A DNA stretch of 64,000 nt. Source: an uncultured Solirubrobacterales bacterium (GTDB lineage: Bacteria > Actinomycetota > Thermoleophilia > Solirubrobacterales > Solirubrobacteraceae). Below, in pieces: positions 4,192-56,494 of this stretch. The notes below the pieces were generated by a model that had not been told where the DNA came from, ran no database searches, and saw nothing but the letters and a program-made list of their open reading frames with translations. The first letter of the stretch is position 1. Every line of letters starts with the position of its first letter. Made by a program: the position numbers and the translations under genes. The stretch covers positions 3,035,269 through 3,099,268 of the forward strand of contig OY969105.1 in assembly GCA_963697945.1 (NCBI GenBank). The letters run 5' to 3'.

Positions 4192-4336
4192 CTGAGCGGT
4201 GCATGCACCGCTCAGCGGAGTCGTACATGTACGACTCCGTGACGAGCCGCATGCGGCTCGTCATCCGATGGGCGCATGCGCCCATCGGCGGGACCGCACA
4301 TGTGCGGTCCCGGGCAGGGCCGCATGCGGCCCTGCC
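4192..4336. repeat. Array 1 of six tandem 24-bp perfect palindromes centred on CATG
   Basis: Units 4192-4215, 4216-4239, 4240-4263, 4265-4288, 4289-4312, 4313-4336; each is a 10-bp arm + CATG + the exact reverse complement, checked base by base. Confidence 0.97.
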
Positions 4337-6960: not shown

Positions 6961-7935
6961 AGGCTTGATGCGGGTTTATCGTCCGTCGTAGGCGGCGAGT
7001 GCTCGGGGTGGACGTCCGGCGAGGATGTTGATGTGCATTGCGAGGGTGAGGGCGAGGAGGCGTTGCGCGATGCGTTGTACGAGCCCTCCGAGTGTCTTGG
7101 CGAGGTGGTCTTCTAGGCGCATTTGGCGCTTGAGGTTGGAGAACACGCTCTCGATGACCAGGCGTACGCGTGCCTTGACGATCTCGCTGGCGGGGCGTGG
7201 ACCAGGACGGTGGCGCTCGGGCGTGATGAGTTGGACATTGATGAGTTCCATGCAATCTCGGTACTCCTTCCCCCAAAAGCCCTTATCGGCAAAGAGTGTG
7301 CTGCCGGAATGCGCGGCCGCCAACTCCAACGCACGTTCACGCTCTTGCCCGGTCTTGGGACCTGTGAGGTCATAACCGACGGGAACACCCTTTGCGTCGC
7401 TGATGAGCACAAGGCGCATTCCCCACACGAACAGGCTCTTGGATGGGCAGTAGCCGTAACTGGCATGCCCGGCGAACTCGCTGAACGATGCGCAGCCTGG
7501 ATAGTTGGCGCACGCGATCAGCGTTCCGTCGACCAGTCGCACCTGTCCATCGGCGATCAACTCGGCGACCATCATCTGCACCGTTGTGATCTGAGGTGTG
7601 AGCCGTCTAAGCCTGCGGTTGTACTGCGACTGGCCAGGTAACTCGGGGAAGAACCCGGGCAGCAACCGGCCGATCACACCCAAAAACTGGCGGTCTGAAC
7701 AGATCCCCGTCACCGCCTGGGCGACCCCCACCGCGATCAGCTCCTGATCTGTGACCTTGCCAGGTGGGCCCGGGCGAGGAATCGACAACGAGCAGGCGAA
7801 TACGTAGGCTGCAACAACGAGGGTCTCCAGCGAAGCGTCCATCTCGTGCTCCAATCACGAGTTGACAAGGGCTGGGGACCCTCTTCTCATCCCACCACCA
7901 CGATTCCTGCCCACCACCCAACCCGCATCAAGCCT
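6961..7935 (-). mobile_element. IS982-family insertion sequence, copy 1 (975 bp)
   Basis: Perfect 16-bp terminal IR AGGCTTGATGCGGGTT/AACCCGCATCAAGCCT; CTAG repeated on both flanks (6957-6960, 7936-7939); second copy at 52351-53325. Confidence 0.92.
6976..7842 (-). CDS. IS982-family DDE transposase
   Basis: KVTDQEL..FPELPGQSQYNRRLRRL N-terminus; DDE triad in VDGT, ADKGF, IESVFSNLK; GGAG RBS before ATG 7842. Confidence 0.88.
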   Translation of the reverse strand: MDASLETLVVAAYVFACSLSIPRPGPPGKVTDQELIAVGVAQAVTGICSDRQFLGVIGRLLPGFFPELPGQSQYNRRLRRLTPQITTVQMMVAELIADGQVRLVDGTLIACANYPGCASFSEFAGHASYGYCPSKSLFVWGMRLVLISDAKGVPVGYDLTGPKTGQERERALELAAAHSGSTLFADKGFWGKEYRDCMELINVQLITPERHRPGPRPASEIVKARVRLVIESVFSNLKRQMRLEDHLAKTLGGLVQRIAQRLLALTLAMHINILAGRPPRALAAYDGR

Positions 7936-12053: not shown

Positions 12054-12080
12054 GGTTCCGGAGAGTCTATTAGTCCAGAC

Positions 12081-13070
12081 TTAGTCCTGACGGAGATTCA
12101 GGCCCCGTGCGTGGAGCGTCTCGATGACCTCGTCGATCGACTTTTTGCCGAAGTTCGGGATCGCGTTGAGCTCGGCCTCGGACTTCGAGATGAGATCTCC
12201 GACGGTCTGGATGCCTGCGCGCTTGAGGCAGTTGTAGGAGCGCACACCGAGCTCGAGCTCCTCGATCAAGATGCCCCACTCCTCGCCCTGCAGGGCGCCC
12301 GCAGTCCCGCCGCCACCCGCGCCGCCCGGGACCGCGAGACCGTGACCGTCGAGCTGTCCGCCAGGAGCGGCACGAAGCTCTTGGATGCGGTCGGCATCGG
12401 TGAAGATCGCCAGCTGCGAGATCAACAGCTCGGCGGCCTCGCGCAGCGCGGCCTGAGGATCGATCGAGCCGTCTGTCTCGATGTCCAGGGTGAGCTTGTC
12501 GAAGTCGGTCTTCTGACCGACACGGGCCTGCTCGACGGCATAGGCGACACGACGCACGGGCGAGAAGATCGAGTCGATCGGGATCACACCGATGGGCTGG
12601 TCGGGCGACTTGTTCTCCTCGGCGGGGCGATATCCGCGGCCGCGACCGATCGTCATGTATAGCTCGAGCTTTGTCTTCTTCTCAAGCGTCGCGACGTGCA
12701 CGTCCGGGTTGAGGATCTCCACGCCGGCGGGCAAGTCGATGTCCTTGGCCGTGATTTCCCCCGGGCCGGTCACGACCAGCGGCGCCTCGACCTCGGTCGC
12801 GTCTGAGTGCATGCGGCAGACGATGCCCTTGAGGTTGAGCACGATGTCGGTCACGTCTTCCTTGACGCCCGGGATCGTCGAGAACTCGTGCGCGACTCCC
12901 TCGATGCGCACACTCGTGACGGCGGCGCCCGCGAGCGATGAGAGCAGCACGCGCCGCAGCGAGTTGCCGAACGTGTAGCCGAAACCGCGGTCGAGCGGCT
13001 CGATGGTGAACGTGCCGCGGTTCTGCTCCACGGACTCGCTTGTGATCCGGGGGATTTGGAAGTCGAGCAT
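12081..13070 (-). CDS. rpoA: RNA polymerase alpha subunit
   Basis: EPLDRGFGYTFGNSLRRVLLSSL; alpha-CTD ELELGVRSYNCLKRAGI; start placed at ATG 13070. Confidence 0.97.
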   Translation of the reverse strand: MLDFQIPRITSESVEQNRGTFTIEPLDRGFGYTFGNSLRRVLLSSLAGAAVTSVRIEGVAHEFSTIPGVKEDVTDIVLNLKGIVCRMHSDATEVEAPLVVTGPGEITAKDIDLPAGVEILNPDVHVATLEKKTKLELYMTIGRGRGYRPAEENKSPDQPIGVIPIDSIFSPVRRVAYAVEQARVGQKTDFDKLTLDIETDGSIDPQAALREAAELLISQLAIFTDADRIQELRAAPGGQLDGHGLAVPGGAGGGGTAGALQGEEWGILIEELELGVRSYNCLKRAGIQTVGDLISKSEAELNAIPNFGKKSIDEVIETLHARGLNLRQD

Positions 13071-24481: not shown

Positions 24482-25138
24482 CTAGGAGCCCGGGGTCAAA
24501 GTGATCGTCAGGTGGCTCGTACGCTTGTGAATCGGCGTTGCACGCCCCATCGCGCGCGGGCGAAAGCGCTTGATCGTCGGCCCCTCGTCGGCGTAGGCCT
24601 CGCGAACGACGAGATCTTCCTCGAGCAGTTCGTGATTGTTCTCGGCGTTCGCTACCGCCGACTCCAACAGCTTGCTCCAGTCGCGCGCCACCTCACGAGA
24701 GGTGAAGGCGAGGATAGCGCGTGCCTCGGGAACGGTCTTGCCGCGGATGTGGGGGCACACCATCCGCGCCTTGCGCGCCGAGGTCCGCACGTAACGCGCA
24801 TGCGCCCGCACGACTCGGCGGCGTGGCGGTTTTCCGGCGGCGCCACGAGCGGCTTTCTTGCTCTCGCTCGCGGGAGCCTCCTTCGCCGCCGACTCCTTGG
24901 CGGTCGGCTCTTTGGCGCTCTCGCTCTTGACCGCGGACTCTTTGGTCGCTTTTTTGGCAGCCGGTTTCTTGCCCTCGTCGCTCTTGGCCGCGGTCTCATC
25001 GGTCGCCTGCGTGTTCGCCTCCGTGCCTTTAGCGGCAGCTTTGGCCGGTTTTTTGGCGGCGGCTTTCTTGGCGGCCGGTTTCTTTGCGGCCTCGCTCTCC
25101 TCGGGCACCTTCTCGCCCTGCTCCTCCTCGGCGCTCAT
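24482..25138 (-). CDS. rplV: 50S ribosomal protein L22 with Lys/Ala/Glu-rich N-terminal extension
   Basis: [31 protein letters not shown]; start ATG 25138 overlaps the rpsS stop. Confidence 0.94.
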
Positions 25139-25410
25139 CAGCGGACCTTCCCCGATCCGGCATGACCGCGGAAGACGCGCGTGGGCGCGAACTCGCCGAG
25201 CTTGTGGCCGACCATCGACTCGCTGATGAACACGGGCACGTGTTTCTTGCCGTCGTGCACGGCGATCGTGTGCCCGACCATCTCCGGGAAGATCGTCGAG
25301 GCGCGCGACCAGGTGCGCAGCATTTTTTTGTTGTTCTCGGCGTTCAACGCCTCGATGCGGGAGAGCAAACGCTCCTGCACCCACGGGCCCTTCTTGCTTG
25401 AGCGACTCAT
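25138..25410 (-). CDS. rpsS: 30S ribosomal protein S19
   Basis: [28 protein letters not shown]; start ATG 25410. Confidence 0.98.
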
Positions 25411-25425
25411 GTCAGCGATTCCCTC

Positions 25426-25529
25426 CCACGGATACGTAGGGCAAGCTGGGCAAGGACGCAGTGAGCGAAGTGTGCTGTGCACACGAGTGATCGAGGACGC
25501 CGATCCAGCGCCGCCATACGTGTTCGTGG
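25426..25529 (+). repeat. Structured ~104-bp dispersed element, copy A
   Basis: 13-bp outer stem CCACGGATACGTA/TACGTGTTCGTGG, inner GCTGG/CCAGC, AGGACGC direct repeats, apical GTGTGC-TGT-GCACAC. Confidence 0.8.
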
Positions 25530-30099: not shown

Positions 30100-30205
30100 C
30101 TGAGAGGGCCGTGAGTCGAGCGAGACAAGGACGCAGGGAGCGTGGCGTACTACGTACGCGAGCGACCGAGGACGCAGTATCGCGAAGCGCTCACGGTCAT
30201 CTCAG
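30100..30205 (+). repeat. Structured ~104-bp dispersed element, copy B
   Basis: Outer stems CTGAGA/TCTCAG and GGCCGTGAG/CTCACGGTC, two AGGACGCAG, apical GCGTAC-TAC-GTACGC. Confidence 0.8.
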
Positions 30206-33136: not shown

Positions 33137-34627
33137 CTACGCCCCGAGCGGCTCGACCGCGGCCTCAGCGCCGGCGGCCTCGCGCGTGAGCTTCGCGCGC
33201 GGATTCTCGGCCCGTGCCAGCACCAGACACGGGATCAGCGACAGCAGCGCGATTGCCAGGGCCCACCAGTAGGCCGAGTTGAACGCGCTCGCGAGCTGCG
33301 CCGGCGTGGACGCGTGGGCGCCGGCGCGTTGCAGCACGACCGCGAGCACCGCCACTCCGATCGCCCCGCCGACACGCTGGAGCATGTTCAGCTGCGGCGT
33401 CGCGTCGGAGAGCTCCTCCGGTCGCAGTGCCGTGAACGCGGCGGTCATCGCGGGCATGAACGACAGCCCGATGCCCACGCCGCGCACGGCCAGCACGAGT
33501 GAAATCGCGACGATCGAGGTGTTCGCTCCGATCAGCACGAACGGGACCGTGCTCAGACACAGGATCGAGACGCCGACGATCGCCACGCGACCGCCCCCGA
33601 AGCGTTCGGTGAGGCGTCCGTTGAGCGGTCCGACGAGCAGCATCCCCAGCCCTTGCGGGCCGACGAGCAGGCCCGTGACGATGATGCTCTCGCCGCGCAC
33701 CTCCTGGTAGTAGAGCGGGATCAAAATCATCGCGCCGAACAGCGAGGCGCCCAGCCCGAACGTCGTCAGCGAGGCCGCCCCGAAGACGCGGTTCTTATAC
33801 AGACGGATGTCAAGCAGCGGACGCTCGACCCGCAGCGCGTGCCAACCGAACGCAAGCGTCAGCGCGACCCCGACCAGCAGCGGCCAGATCACGCTCGGGG
33901 CGGTGAGGCTGGCGTTCGTGCCGAGCTCCGACAGGCCATACACGACCGCGGTGGCGCCCGTCGAGATCAGTGCCAGGCCGAGCACGTCCAGCTGTCCGGC
34001 CTCGCCGGACTCGGTCTTCGGCAGCATCCGCCAGCCGAGCACGAACGCGACCACGCCGATCGGGACGTTGACGAGGAAGATCCACGACCAGTGCAGCTCC
34101 TGCAGGATCACGCCCCCGACCACCGGCCCGAGGATCGGTGCGAGCATCGCGGGCATCACCACGACGCCCATCACGCGACCCATCCGCTTGGGGCCCGCGA
34201 CCTGGGCCATGATCAGCTGAGCGATCGGCATGATCATCCCGCCGCCGGCTCCCTGCAGCACGCGAAAGAACACGAGCGTCGTCAGCGAGCCGGCCACCGC
34301 GCACAGTCCCGAGCCGGCCGTGAACAGCACCAGCGAGACCAGATACACGCGCTTGGCCCCGAACCGCCGTGCCGCCCATCCAGTCACCGGGATGACCGCC
34401 GCCAGCGCGAGCAGATAGCCGGTTACGACCCACTGCACTTGGGAGATCGAGCTGTGCAGATCGTGCCCGAGCGTGTGCAGCGCGACGTTCACGATGGTCG
34501 TGTCGAGGATCGACATGATCATCCCCAGGATCACCACGCCGGCGATCTTCCAGACGTAGGGCTCGATGTGATCTGAGGCCTCCGGGTGAAAGCCCGGATC
34601 GGCTGCGGTTGTCGGAGAGGAAGACAT
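33137..34627 (-). CDS. DHA2 (EmrB/QacA-type) MFS efflux transporter
   Basis: LDTTIVNVAL, QWVVTGYLLA, RRFGAKR, RVLQGAGGG, GPVVGG; about 14 TM. Confidence 0.92.
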   Translation of the reverse strand: MSSSPTTAADPGFHPEASDHIEPYVWKIAGVVILGMIMSILDTTIVNVALHTLGHDLHSSISQVQWVVTGYLLALAAVIPVTGWAARRFGAKRVYLVSLVLFTAGSGLCAVAGSLTTLVFFRVLQGAGGGMIMPIAQLIMAQVAGPKRMGRVMGVVVMPAMLAPILGPVVGGVILQELHWSWIFLVNVPIGVVAFVLGWRMLPKTESGEAGQLDVLGLALISTGATAVVYGLSELGTNASLTAPSVIWPLLVGVALTLAFGWHALRVERPLLDIRLYKNRVFGAASLTTFGLGASLFGAMILIPLYYQEVRGESIIVTGLLVGPQGLGMLLVGPLNGRLTERFGGGRVAIVGVSILCLSTVPFVLIGANTSIVAISLVLAVRGVGIGLSFMPAMTAAFTALRPEELSDATPQLNMLQRVGGAIGVAVLAVVLQRAGAHASTPAQLASAFNSAYWWALAIALLSLIPCLVLARAENPRAKLTREAAGAEAAVEPLGA

Positions 34628-34686: not shown

Positions 34687-34832
34687 CTGCTCGGCGCATG
34701 CGCCGAGCAGCGGGGGCGCGCATGCGCGCCCCCGAACGGGCCGCACATGTGCGGCCCGGGCGTCGCCACATGTGGCGACGCCTTGCGGGCGGTGCATGCA
34801 CCGCCCGCCGACCCCGCGCATGCGCGGGGTCG
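34687..34832. repeat. Array 2 of six tandem CATG-centred perfect palindromes
   Basis: Units 34687-34710, 34711-34734, 34737-34758 (22 bp), 34759-34782, 34785-34808, 34809-34832. Confidence 0.97.
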
Positions 34833-34887: not shown

Positions 34888-34991
34888 GTAGCGGTTCGAG
34901 GACCAAGCGGACCGCGGACGCAGGGAGCGAAGTGTGCTCTGCACATGAGCGACCGAGGACAAAGGTCCGCGCCGCGTCCTCGGGCCGCTAC
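34888..34991 (+). repeat. Structured ~104-bp dispersed element, copy C
   Basis: 16-bp outer stem GTAGCGGTTCGAGGAC/GTCCTCGGGCCGCTAC, inner GCGGACC/GGTCCGC, apical GTGTGC-TCT-GCACAT. Confidence 0.8.
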
Positions 34992-48912: not shown

Positions 48913-49334
48913 GAGGCCACCTCCACGCCCATCGAGCGCGCCGTCCCCGCGATGATCTTCGCGGCCTGGTCGACGTCGTGGGCGTTCAAATCCGCGAGCT
49001 TGCGCTCGGCGATCTCCCGCAGCTGCGCCTGGGTGATCGTGCCGACCTTCGTGCGGTTGGGCTCGCCCGAGCCCTTGCCGATGCGCAGCGCCTGCTTGAT
49101 CAGCACGGCCGCGGGAGGCGTCTTGGTGACGAACGTGAACGAACGATCCTCATAAACGGTGATCACGACCGGGATCGTGGTCCCGGTTTCGGACTGCGTC
49201 TGCGCGTTGAAGGCCTTGCAGAACTCCATGATGTTGATCCCGTGCTGACCCAGCGCAGGACCGACCGGCGGGGCCGGGCTGGCCTGGCCGCCGTTGGCTT
49301 GGAGCTTTATCGTTGTGAGTACCTTCTTGGCCAT
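48909..49334 (-). CDS. rplK: 50S ribosomal protein L11
   Basis: [33 protein letters not shown]. Confidence 0.98.
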
Positions 49335-49384
49335 ATCGAACGCCTAGGTTAGCTGCGATTGACTGGGATTGTCTTCTTGATGTC

Positions 49385-49528
49385 GCCCACGGCGCGTGCG
49401 CCGTGGGCCGCAGGCGCGCATGCGCGCCTGCGTGGGAGCCGCACATGTGCGGCTCCACCGGCGGCGCATGCGCCGCCGGCCAGACGGGCGCATGCGCCCG
49501 TCTGCGGGTCGGTACATGTACCGACCCG
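49385..49528. repeat. Array 3 of six tandem CATG-centred palindromes
   Basis: Units 49385-49408 (core CGTG), 49409-49432, 49435-49456 (22 bp), 49458-49479 (22 bp), 49481-49504, 49505-49528. Confidence 0.97.
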
Positions 49529-49531
49529 GTC

Positions 49532-50056
49532 CTAAATCTTTTTTACCTGATCAAAACCCACCTCTACGGGGGTCTCGCGGCCGAAGATTGATACCAGGAC
49601 CTTCAACTTGGCCGCGTCCTCGTTGATCTCCGAGATCTCCCCCGAGAAGTCCGAGAGCGGTCCGGAGACCACCTTGACGGACTCGCCGATCTGAAACTGC
49701 GCGCGCGTGCGCGGCGCCGTGGCGACGTCGGTCTTGTGCAACAGCCGATCGACCTCGACCTGGGTCAGCGGCACGGGCTCCTGGGAGGCGCCGACGAAGC
49801 CGGTCACGCCGGGGGTGCCCTTGACGACGCCCCAGGAGTCCTCGTTGAGCTCCATGTTCACGAGCACATAGCCGGGCATCGTGCGCTTCTCCACGGTGAC
49901 CTTCTGGTTGTCCTTCATCTCCGAGACGGACTCGGTCGGGACGACCACGTTGCGCACGGCGCGCTGCTGGCCGAGCGAGATCACGCGATGCTCGAGGTTC
50001 TGTTTGACCTTGTTCTCGTGGCCTGAATAAGTGTTGACGACGTACCAGCGAAACAT
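49532..50056 (-). CDS. nusG: Transcription termination/antitermination factor NusG
   Basis: WYVVNTYSGHENKV, PGYVLVNM, KOW GESVKVVSGP, VSIFGRETPVE. Confidence 0.98.
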   Translation of the reverse strand: MFRWYVVNTYSGHENKVKQNLEHRVISLGQQRAVRNVVVPTESVSEMKDNQKVTVEKRTMPGYVLVNMELNEDSWGVVKGTPGVTGFVGASQEPVPLTQVEVDRLLHKTDVATAPRTRAQFQIGESVKVVSGPLSDFSGEISEINEDAAKLKVLVSIFGRETPVEVGFDQVKKI

Positions 50057-52247: not shown

Positions 52248-52350
52248 CTAGACGGCCGGGAGGCAAGAGAGGCAAGAACGCAGGAGGCGAGGCGTACTAC
52301 GTACGCGAGCCGACGAGGACGCAGCATCTCGCCGCCTCCCGACCGTCTAG
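52248..52350 (+). repeat. Structured ~104-bp dispersed element, copy D
   Basis: 17-bp outer stem CTAGACGGCCGGGAGGC/GCCTCCCGACCGTCTAG (1 mismatch), apical GCGTAC-TAC-GTACGC, GAGGACGCAG. Confidence 0.8.
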
Positions 52351-53325
52351 AGGCTTGATGCGGGTTTATCGTCCGTCGTAGGCGGCGAGTGCTCGGGGTG
52401 GACGTCCGGCGAGGATGTTGATGTGCATTGCGAGGGTGAGGGCGAGGAGGCGTTGCGCGATGCGTTGTACGAGCCCTCCGAGTGTCTTGGCGAGGTGGTC
52501 TTCTAGGCGCATTTGGCGCTTGAGGTTGGAGAACACGCTCTCGATGACCAGGCGTACGCGTGCCTTGACGATCTCGCTGGCGGGGCGTGGACCAGGACGG
52601 TGGCGCTCGGGCGTGATGAGTTGGACATTGATGAGTTCCATGCAATCTCGGTACTCCTTCCCCCAAAAGCCCTTATCGGCAAAGAGTGTGCTGCCGGAAT
52701 GCGCGGCCGCCAACTCCAACGCACGTTCACGCTCTTGCCCGGTCTTGGGACCTGTGAGGTCATAACCGACGGGAACACCCTTTGCGTCGCTGATGAGCAC
52801 AAGGCGCATTCCCCACACGAACAGGCTCTTGGATGGGCAGTAGCCGTAACTGGCATGCCCGGCGAACTCGCTGAACGATGCGCAGCCTGGATAGTTGGCG
52901 CACGCGATCAGCGTTCCGTCGACCAGTCGCACCTGTCCATCGGCGATCAACTCGGCGACCATCATCTGCACCGTTGTGATCTGAGGTGTGAGCCGTCTAA
53001 GCCTGCGGTTGTACTGCGACTGGCCAGGTAACTCGGGGAAGAACCCGGGCAGCAACCGGCCGATCACACCCAAAAACTGGCGGTCTGAACAGATCCCCGT
53101 CACCGCCTGGGCGACCCCCACCGCGATCAGCTCCTGATCTGTGACCTTGCCAGGTGGGCCCGGGCGAGGAATCGACAACGAGCAGGCGAATACGTAGGCT
53201 GCAACAACGAGGGTCTCCAGCGAAGCGTCCATCTCGTGCTCCAATCACGAGTTGACAAGGGCTGGGGACCCTCTTCTCATCCCACCACCACGATTCCTGC
53301 CCACCACCCAACCCGCATCAAGCCT
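52351..53325 (-). mobile_element. IS982-family insertion sequence, copy 2 (975 bp)
   Basis: Same IRs, length and ORF translations as copy 1; CTAG at 52347-52350 and 53326-53329. Confidence 0.92.
52366..53232 (-). CDS. IS982-family DDE transposase
   Basis: Translation identical to the copy 1 transposase. Confidence 0.88.
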   Translation of the reverse strand: MDASLETLVVAAYVFACSLSIPRPGPPGKVTDQELIAVGVAQAVTGICSDRQFLGVIGRLLPGFFPELPGQSQYNRRLRRLTPQITTVQMMVAELIADGQVRLVDGTLIACANYPGCASFSEFAGHASYGYCPSKSLFVWGMRLVLISDAKGVPVGYDLTGPKTGQERERALELAAAHSGSTLFADKGFWGKEYRDCMELINVQLITPERHRPGPRPASEIVKARVRLVIESVFSNLKRQMRLEDHLAKTLGGLVQRIAQRLLALTLAMHINILAGRPPRALAAYDGR

Positions 53326-55779: not shown

Positions 55780-56337
55780 ATGGCAATTGCAGTGTTCCCG
55801 CTGAACCTCCCGAACATGCTCACGGTGCTGCGCATCATGCTGGTGCCGGTGCTGGTGGTGGCGCTGCTCGGCAACACCCAAGAGGGGGACGTGCTCGCCG
55901 CGATCGTGTTCGCGCTCGCTTCGGCGACCGACTTCGTCGACGGCTATCTCGCGCGCTCGCGCCACAGCGTGACGACGTTCGGTAAGCTGATGGACCCGCT
56001 CGCGGACAAGCTCCTGATCGTCGCCGCGCTGATCGCGCTCGTGTCGCTGAACCGGCTGGAAGCGTGGGTGGCGATGGTGATCATCACCCGCGAGCTCGCC
56101 GTCACGGTGCTCAGGCTCGGTGCGACCCAGGCCGGGGTCGTGATGGCCGCGAGCATGCTGGGCAAGATCAAGACCTGCATGCAGATCGCGTTGATCCTCG
56201 CGCTGATCGCCGTGCACGGACAGCCGCTGTGGCTCTCGCTGCTGCTGTACGCGACCGTGCTCGTGACGATCGTCTCGGGGCTGGACTTCTTCTTTGGACT
56301 GCGCCGGCGCCTGGCGCGCGCTCAGACCGACGGCTGA
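55780..56337 (+). CDS. pgsA: CDP-diacylglycerol--glycerol-3-phosphate 3-phosphatidyltransferase
   Basis: [40 protein letters not shown]; the true start may be GTG 55792. Confidence 0.93.
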
Positions 56338-56494
56338 GCCTTCTGGCTGCCCCGGCGCCCCGGCGCGCGTTTCAGACCGACGGCTGAGCCTTCTTCGGGC
56401 TGCCCCGGCGCCCGGCGCGCGTTTCAGACCGACGGCTGAGCCTTCTTCGGGCTGCCCCGGCGCCCCGGCGCGCGTTTCAGACCGACGGCTGAGC
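56286..56494. repeat. Tandem repeat, four copies of a 50-53-bp unit
   Basis: TCAGACCGACGGCTGAGC recurs at 56322, 56372, 56424 and 56477 with near-identical linkers. Confidence 0.9.

Follow-up and report, generated by a model that had tools for sequence, protein, structure and literature searches.

Imperfect-palindrome hairpin repeats with a conserved two-fold symmetric loop at the stop codons of housekeeping genes in Solirubrobacterales

In a 64,000-nt stretch of DNA from an uncultured Solirubrobacterales bacterium (the window), four hairpins of about 104 nt stand at the ends of rplB, fusA, rpsG and clpP. We asked what these hairpins are, which of their strands is the active one, and whether they serve the host or propagate on their own account. 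Culture-based work is scarce on the Solirubrobacterales, Actinomycetota that abound in soil. The original prediction proposed either an unannotated structured RNA motif or a REP/MITE-like single-stranded DNA (ssDNA) element recognised by a dimeric protein.

All four copies lie on the + strand at the predicted coordinates (Table 1), and these coordinates confirm that each adjoins a stop codon, in the case of clpP before an insertion sequence (IS) came between. The neighbouring genes encode, by Pfam, L2, S19, EF-G, EF-Tu, S7 and ClpP, and the IS transposase is DDE_Tnp_1. The terminal CTAG of copy D (52347-52350) is the target duplication of this IS5-family IS, and the second CTAG (53322-53325) contains the clpP stop codon, indicating that copy D adjoined clpP before the IS arrived. 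The IS is present as two identical copies of about 975 bp (~6961-7935 and ~52351-53325), each flanked by CTAG, with the DDE_Tnp_1 transposase, a 104-aa upstream ORF and the terminal inverted repeat GAGGCTTGATGCGGGTT. We rejected it as the transposase that mobilises the hairpin element, since it is a CTAG-duplicating IS5-type IS with an identical copy at an unrelated site. The str operon of the window has a further irregularity: an MFS transporter gene (33137-34627, - strand) lies between rpsG and fusA, normally contiguous, and it is conserved in three relatives (L087, L083 and L065; L numbers denote related loci throughout).

Copy A was predicted to split rplB from rpsS, and it does so as an insertion: the junction measures 119 nt here versus 15 nt in relative L105. 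The element lies 15 nt from the rpsS start, and its + strand folds with an energy of -50.2 kcal/mol (z -4.2). In its left outer arm the inner 9 nt, ACGTAGGGC, are common to subfamily copies at other loci, and the outer 8 nt are site-specific. In the list of open reading frames the rpsS frame is prolonged upstream through copy A (25138-25482, - strand, 114 aa from a GTG); the real S19 start is the ATG at 25410, which gives 90 aa and a full Pfam match. Thus, the element can mislead gene callers.

Table 1. Coordinates of the four hairpin copies in the window, the parts of copy A and the adjoining stop codons. Bit scores are those of the covariance model.
Feature	Position	Strand	Details
Copy A	25426-25529	+	104 nt; flanked by rplB stop codon and rpsS RBS; model match 25427-25528, 88.8 bits
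Copy A, left outer arm CCACGGATACGTAGGGC	25426-25442	+	pairs with 25513-25529
Copy A, symmetric internal loop, left half AAGGACGCA	25452-25460	+	
Copy A, apical hairpin GTGTGC TGT GCACAC	25470-25484	+	6 bp and 3-nt loop
Copy A, symmetric internal loop, right half GAGGACGCC	25493-25501	+	
Copy A, right outer arm GCCATACGTGTTCGTGG	25513-25529	+	ends 1 nt short of rplB stop codon
rplB stop codon	25531-25533	-	1 nt past copy A
Copy B	30100-30205	+	106 nt; fusA/tuf spacer; 88.1 bits; fold z -5.0
fusA stop codon	30202-30204	-	within right arm of copy B
Copy C	34888-34991	+	104 nt; downstream of rpsG; 94.4 bits
rpsG stop codon	34988-34990	-	within right arm of copy C
Copy D	52248-52350	+	103 nt; near clpP; IS5-family insertion in terminal CTAG; 91.2 bits

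Each of the four copies folds into the shared architecture that had been described. From the outside in, a 17-18-bp outer stem is followed by an AA/GCC junction, a 7-bp stem (P2) and a 9x9 symmetric loop that carries AAGGACGCA on its 5' side and GAGGACGCM on its 3' side; above the loop come GG/CC, tandem GA/GA, GC/GC, a 3x2 loop and the apical 6-bp stem with its 3-nt loop. Copy C has a variant of the symmetric loop, GCGGACGCA / GAGGACAAA. Compared with dinucleotide shuffles, the + strands of the four copies fold with z-scores of -4.2 to -6.8, and a gapped pattern of the core has 3 exact matches in the window versus 0.05 expected. When the 64-kb window is searched with the covariance model, only the four copies are found (88-94 bits), the next best match scoring 16 bits.

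We quantified the structure on an ungapped alignment of 56 copies and repeated the counts on 112 model-aligned copies. With the predicted partners 93% of cells are paired, versus 25-43% when the partners are slid by 1-3 columns, and the covariation score is 0.61-0.63 versus 0.16 after shuffling, with none of 500 shuffles reaching the observed value. Both sides have changed in 15 of 16 outer-stem pairs and 5 of 7 P2 pairs among the 56 copies, and in 29 of 33 pairs among the 112. RNAalifold, unaided, returns the same fold, including two isolated G-C pairs within the symmetric loop. The compensatory changes noticed in the apical stem of the window copies extend to the whole family (columns 45-57, CG in 44 and UA in 12; columns 48-54, GC in 52 and AU in 4). 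Slid controls, shuffles and the unaided fold together bear out a structured element with significant covariation.

The symmetric loop is the most conserved part of the element, the columns of AAGGACGCA being invariant or nearly so in the 56-sequence alignment. Read against itself it gives the oppositions R.M, A.C, G.G, G-C, A.A, C-G, G.G, C.A and M.R, confirming its two-fold symmetry. The outer stems had been called unrelated in sequence, and this stands for their site-specific outer ends; it does not stand for the inner half, which is shared within subfamilies, or for certain fixed non-Watson-Crick positions. U.G wobbles recur at outer-stem pairs 6-8, a purine-purine mismatch recurs at pairs 12-13, and P2 of one large subfamily contains tandem G.A. 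Diverged copies keep the loop boxes and have the apical hairpin swapped for others or enlarged: in L055 (7789-7909), L051 (4152-4292) and L057 (5732-5835) it is replaced or extended by 20-40 nt, with both RAGGACGCM boxes retained, and similar apical variants occur in metatranscriptome contigs over window positions 30148-30156. The alignments thus show stems that are free to vary provided they pair, around a central part that is nearly constant over about 100 species.

To delimit the family we scanned one genome per species with the exact core pattern, which yielded at least 119 loci from about 100 species-level metagenome-assembled genomes (MAGs). Among the matches listed, nearly all MAGs are labelled Solirubrobacterales, Solirubrobacteraceae, Thermoleophilaceae or Thermoleophilia, and the remaining labels are broad actinobacterial ones that would include Solirubrobacterales/Thermoleophilia. 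Across the family the element is 101-107 nt long. With the covariance model about 10 further copies were found in 766 kb of flanking DNA (~1 per 77 kb), a density that points to tens of copies in each genome.

The element was predicted to be unannotated, and our searches agree. Rfam 15 recognises only a tRNA in the whole window at the gathering threshold; around copies A and B, relaxing the cut-off to E<=10 adds nothing but chance matches to unrelated families, which score 14-15 bits and fall outside the element. No match came from the plasmid and phage collections, queried by BLAST with copy B, or from IMG/VR, scanned with the pattern, and a literature search by taxon, concept and literal sequence (full text) found nothing relevant. 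Neither a match to a known family nor a lack of significant covariation was thus encountered, and the repeat family is real, statistically solid and apparently undescribed.

We examined the gene context of the copies by calling the coding strand of each flank from codon-position GC. Among the copies listed, the neighbouring genes converge at 33, are co-directional at 44 (folding strand antisense at 30, sense at 14) and diverge at 1; about a third of copies are in convergent spacers. The family is therefore found almost exclusively at gene 3' ends, and the genes are housekeeping ones: those upstream encode NAD synthase, S7, FtsZ, aminoacyl-tRNA synthetases, SufBD and Hsp70, among others. In most copies the stop codon lies 0-8 nt inside the end of the outer stem. 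The element ends read CTRR...YYAG, with variation, and the GTAG seen in some left arms is only the mirror image of a TAG stop codon. Assigned by the adjacent stop codon, single-sided copies number 58 antisense versus 19 sense. The claim that the folding strand is antisense to the host mRNA holds for all four window copies and becomes, family-wide, only a 2-3:1 tendency (58:19; 30:14).

An accompanying HUH/RAYT or IS transposase had also been envisaged, and none was found next to the copies examined, the IS at copy D being of an unrelated IS5 type. Mobile-element genes are absent from the 25 most frequent Pfam families of 107 upstream ORFs; HUH/RAYT, Y1 transposase, recombinase and reverse transcriptase genes do not adjoin the copies examined; and no RAYT gene lies between the two inverted element pairs examined, in L055 and L057.

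The position of the copies invites a reading in which the element acts in cis in the mRNA, as a 3' stabiliser, an RNase III-type site or a U-tract-independent terminator or insulator, with the loop as the site of an RNA-binding protein or nuclease. We regard this as possible but doubtful. It is favoured by the concentration at 3' ends (33 convergent and 44 co-directional copies against 1 divergent), by the stop codon within the stem, by the well-expressed housekeeping genes upstream and by the conservation of the core across the order. The element is also present in soil metatranscriptome contigs (Logan, unstranded), where it is contiguous with the 3' end of fusA. Against it, terminators would hardly be expected inside the S10 and str operons, where copies occur, and a U-tract is absent on both sides. 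Over the 10 nt beyond the hairpin the mean count is 1.9 for T on one flank and 2.1 for A on the opposite flank (background 1.6), and only 3 of 109 copies have at least 5 T or A beyond the hairpin on either side. An intrinsic (Rho-independent) terminator is thereby ruled out.

Strand preference provides a further view of the element. For 125 copies the outer arms were aligned to each other under a scoring scheme with equal penalties for G.T and A.C; on the purine-loop (+) strand the oppositions comprise 1776 Watson-Crick pairs, 94 G.T, 19 A.C and 89 others, and a model-based alignment gives 95 G.T versus 16 A.C. The excess is present in the inner and outer halves of the stem alike, and it persists whichever neighbour ends at the element, with G.T:A.C of 54:9 where only the right one does, 15:1 where only the left one does and 13:5 where both do. 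Of 109 copies, 93 have the more stable fold on the + strand when RNA parameters are used and 100 when DNA parameters are used, and both strands fold strongly (-60 and -55 kcal/mol). The prediction from the window copies, that wobbles favour folding of the + strand, therefore generalises, and the purine-loop strand is the better-folding and apparently the selected one, whatever the direction of the neighbouring gene. Cytosine deamination occurs mainly on the non-transcribed strand and the lagging-strand template; these known mutational asymmetries predict the opposite sign, so we read the G.T bias as selection on, or inheritance of, the fold of the purine-loop strand.

These counts cut both ways for a role in the mRNA. 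Where the mRNA carries the - strand, the variable stems read in that mRNA show 54 A.C versus 9 G.U, the opposite of what selection for pairing in the mRNA should leave. Speaking for such a role are the strong folding of both strands and several conserved A.C oppositions of the + strand, in the junction and loop, which are G.U on its complement, the commoner mRNA-sense strand; the mRNA-sense strand may thus be a second functional form.

The better folding of the + strand could also point to an independent small or antisense RNA gene on that strand, directed against the 3' end of the upstream gene, and purine-rich GGA loops do resemble those of protein-sponge RNAs. We consider this highly improbable: there is neither room for a promoter nor conservation of one, with only 15 nt between copy A and the rpsS start and with variable left arms; there is no terminator; the copies number in the tens and differ in their stems; and the orientation flips at orthologous sites. 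A link to the direction of replication is likewise not supported, as GC skew is only weakly related to element orientation (-0.008 +/- 0.004). In L079/L118 and L015, copies on one chromosome face opposite ways at a distance of 8 kb, arguing against any simple link of this kind.

Another possibility is a host-domesticated DNA site for a structure- or sequence-specific binding protein (a nucleoid protein, gyrase or topoisomerase, cf. E. coli BIME/REP, or a cruciform binder), which would recognise the extruded hairpin or two direct AGGACGCAG boxes spaced 41 bp apart where transcription units end. Gene 3' ends and convergent spacers are where positive supercoils accumulate, the core does not vary over about 100 species, the loop is two-fold symmetric, and the strand asymmetry of the stems is independent of transcription direction, all of which would suit such a site. 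Still, covarying stems are needless for duplex binding, cruciform energetics alone would not explain G.T on one particular strand, close relatives can dispense with the sites, and no candidate protein is known; we therefore judge it unlikely.

Synteny with related genomes shows how mobile the copies are. Six junctions are filled in one genome and empty, or different, in a relative. The rplB/rpsS junction is filled by copy A and measures 15 nt in L105, and the fusA/tuf junction is filled by copy B and empty both in L087, at 92% nt identity, and in L105. Conversely, rplF/rplR is filled in L002 and has its genes 2 nt apart in the window, rplW/rplB is filled in L105 and empty in the window, and an element of L108 corresponds to an empty site at window 12054-12082. 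At window 49334-49532, L074 carries the element and the window a different repeat. One metatranscriptome contig joins rpsS to rplB across the position of copy A, indicating a relative with an empty site, and other contigs join tuf to fusA, skipping the whole copy-B spacer. That the same junctions are empty in close relatives weighs against an mRNA element, too.

Clustering of the upstream proteins gave 13 orthologous groups, in 5 of which the element is in opposite orientations between genomes with its subfamily type unchanged, one such site being located downstream of a class II aminoacyl-tRNA synthetase gene. Either orientation at one orthologous site again argues against action in the mRNA. 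At the rpsG site four genomes share common arms and have two different core types; the orthologues of copy C in L083, L087 and L065 have the same arms and differ in core type. A subfamily with the inner arms ACGYAGGGC / GCCATRCGT is found at non-orthologous sites, where its outermost 2-10 bp differ from copy to copy, yet remain complementary and reach into the last codons of different genes. Filled and empty sites compared at four junctions show no direct target duplication flanking the element; the element ends there are inverted complements that include the stop codon. These comparisons show that copies are gained, lost and inverted in place, and that cores are swapped, between related genomes.

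Two origins for the copies were considered and set aside. Insertion into pre-existing palindromes, including CATG-centred ones, is contradicted as a general rule by empty sites without a palindrome and by subfamily junction dinucleotides that are, by eye, inconsistent. Scans for half-sites, which would reveal an autonomous parent with a gene between half-elements, returned only chance coding matches and one remnant. This remnant, at ~825-870 of L105, is the right half of a subfamily-A element (CGAGGACGCCGATCCGGCGCCGCCATGCGTGCTC) without the left half, just downstream of the rpsS gene (protein match 869-1135), and it is apparently the product of a deletion. Tandem or partly duplicated copies with identical arms occur in L016 (1392-1685), L037 (3933-4119) and L052 (2137-2341), and their sequences indicate local duplication events.

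The different repeat at window 49334-49532 belongs to a second family, made up of 22-24-nt perfect palindromes arranged head to tail in arrays of 5-6, each with a variable arm of 9-10 nt, an RCATGY centre and the reverse-complement arm. Arrays lie at window 4192-4336, 34687-34832 and 49409-49528, the last of these sites being occupied by a 104-nt element in L074, and also in L065, L083, L006, L030, L091 and L001. The window has 17 CATG-centred palindromes and none with any other palindromic 4-mer at the centre. In orthologous units changes are mirrored on both arms, with no mismatched intermediates; a palindrome array is missing in the closest relative, L087, and similar units recur across arrays. 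A separate tandem repeat at 56289-56494 has 4 copies of a 52-nt period (91% matches; consensus CTTCTTCGGGCTGCCCCGGCGCCCCGGCGCGCGTTTCAGACCGACGGCTGAGC).

How does the element compare with known repeats? With REP/REPIN-RAYT systems it has in common extragenic hairpin repeats in tens to hundreds of copies, placement at gene 3' ends and between convergent genes with avoidance of divergent promoter regions (here 33/44/1 convergent, co-directional and divergent), presence/absence polymorphism and, as in REPINs, a length of about 100 nt with a long hairpin fold; we also count as a likeness the REP trait of a strand-specific folded ssDNA recognised by a dimeric protein. In contrast, REP/REPIN sequences conserve the stem and a 5' GT(A/G)G box, whereas here the stems vary and a non-complementary loop is conserved; the core is kept over a whole order rather than being species-specific, and no RAYT is near the copies examined. 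We therefore rejected REP proper, as the stem is not conserved (29 of 33 pairs vary) and the GTAG box is absent. ERIC/IRU and Correia (NEMIS) elements are likewise imperfect palindromes, of 100-150 nt, in transcribed intergenic regions in either orientation, are co-transcribed with flanking genes, including within operons, and vary in presence among relatives. Unlike the present family they are conserved over their full length with terminal inverted repeats, and Correia elements duplicate a TA target, whereas no direct duplication accompanies the present elements, whose site-specific termini take in the stop codon. A classical MITE is also rejected, although insertion polymorphism at six junctions is a MITE trait: the outermost 8-10 bp differ even within one subfamily, and there is no target-site duplication. 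The REP/MITE-like label of the original prediction thus survives for an extragenic, multi-copy, polymorphic repeat and fails for the stem and box of REP and for the termini and duplication of MITEs.

Integron attC sites offer another likeness, as they directly follow and often overlap a stop codon, conserve structure over stem sequence with fixed unpaired or extrahelical features, and fold on one strand, which tends to be antisense to the gene; their recognition as folded ssDNA by recombinase dimers is again counted as a likeness. However, attC sites conserve the outer R''/R' boxes (RYYYAAC / GTTRRRY) and vary centrally, the reverse of what is seen here, and the genes here are fixed members of housekeeping operons rather than cassettes, with no IntI or attI seen. 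Since the ends lack R''/R' boxes and the flanks are ribosomal and housekeeping genes, we rejected integron attC as an identity. Phage T7 intercistronic RNase III sites and mycobacterial TRIT are repeated conserved hairpins after stop codons that shape mRNA 3' ends, and both are known to act in the mRNA sense only. The present family differs from these in having both orientations, no U-tract and, in co-directional copies, wobbles that favour the mostly antisense strand. From known systems as a whole it is set apart by its conserved symmetric loop, its site-specific ends at stop codons and a strand asymmetry that is independent of transcription.

The attC likeness could be extended to an undescribed folded-single-strand recombination or transposition system, attC/IntI- or IS200/RAYT-like, operating at housekeeping stop codons, which we consider quite unlikely. 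In such a system a strand-specific dimeric enzyme would insert, exchange and flip a ~70-nt core with two RAGGACGCM boxes between site-specific arms, and hairpin-templated (template-switch) synthesis would restore the arms as inverted copies of the flank. The arrays of perfect RCATGY-centred 24-nt palindromes might then be products of the same palindrome-maintaining machinery.

The explanation we prefer, with a probability of roughly 0.4, is an old and still-turning-over family of imperfect-palindrome intergenic repeats, specific to Solirubrobacterales and resembling REP/REPIN and ERIC in kind. The hairpin would be mobile or copy-converted, and the dimeric protein responsible for its propagation would bind its purine-loop strand in folded form, probably as ssDNA. 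The active form would be the folded single strand of the purine-loop orientation, and ssDNA is preferred because in about half of the copies no gene's mRNA can include the element in this sense. The symmetric loop may be the docking site of a homodimeric, strand-specific protein, the likeliest partner being an enzyme that copies or moves the element in trans, such as a RAYT/IS200-type HUH enzyme or a folded-single-strand recombinase. In mRNA the element would be a passive, stable hairpin without a U-tract; it would be tolerated in tight operons because the hairpin holds its ends together and so keeps the stop codon and the next RBS adjacent. The antisense excess could reflect selection against purine loops that resemble Shine-Dalgarno sequences (AAGGA, GGGAG, GAGGA) in the mRNA. 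The near-invariant core across the order exceeds what is typical of REP or MITE families, and a host function fits it at least as well as a selfish element does.

Rfam and the literature searched thus lack a heavily covarying motif that occurs in about 100 species. Its design is the converse of what is usual in bacterial repeats: the stems vary, the loop is fixed and the ends merge with stop codons, and one site can carry it in either orientation or with a different core. If the partner is an ssDNA-hairpin enzyme, the element would represent a new substrate class for HUH/recombinase systems and a marker of genome dynamics in Solirubrobacterales; if it acts in the mRNA, it would be a 3'-end or intercistronic signal of wide occurrence, present even in such central operons as S10 and str. 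In both cases MAG pipelines should mask or annotate it, because it creates spurious ORFs, such as the rpsS frame prolonged through copy A (25138-25482), and breaks synteny-based operon predictions.
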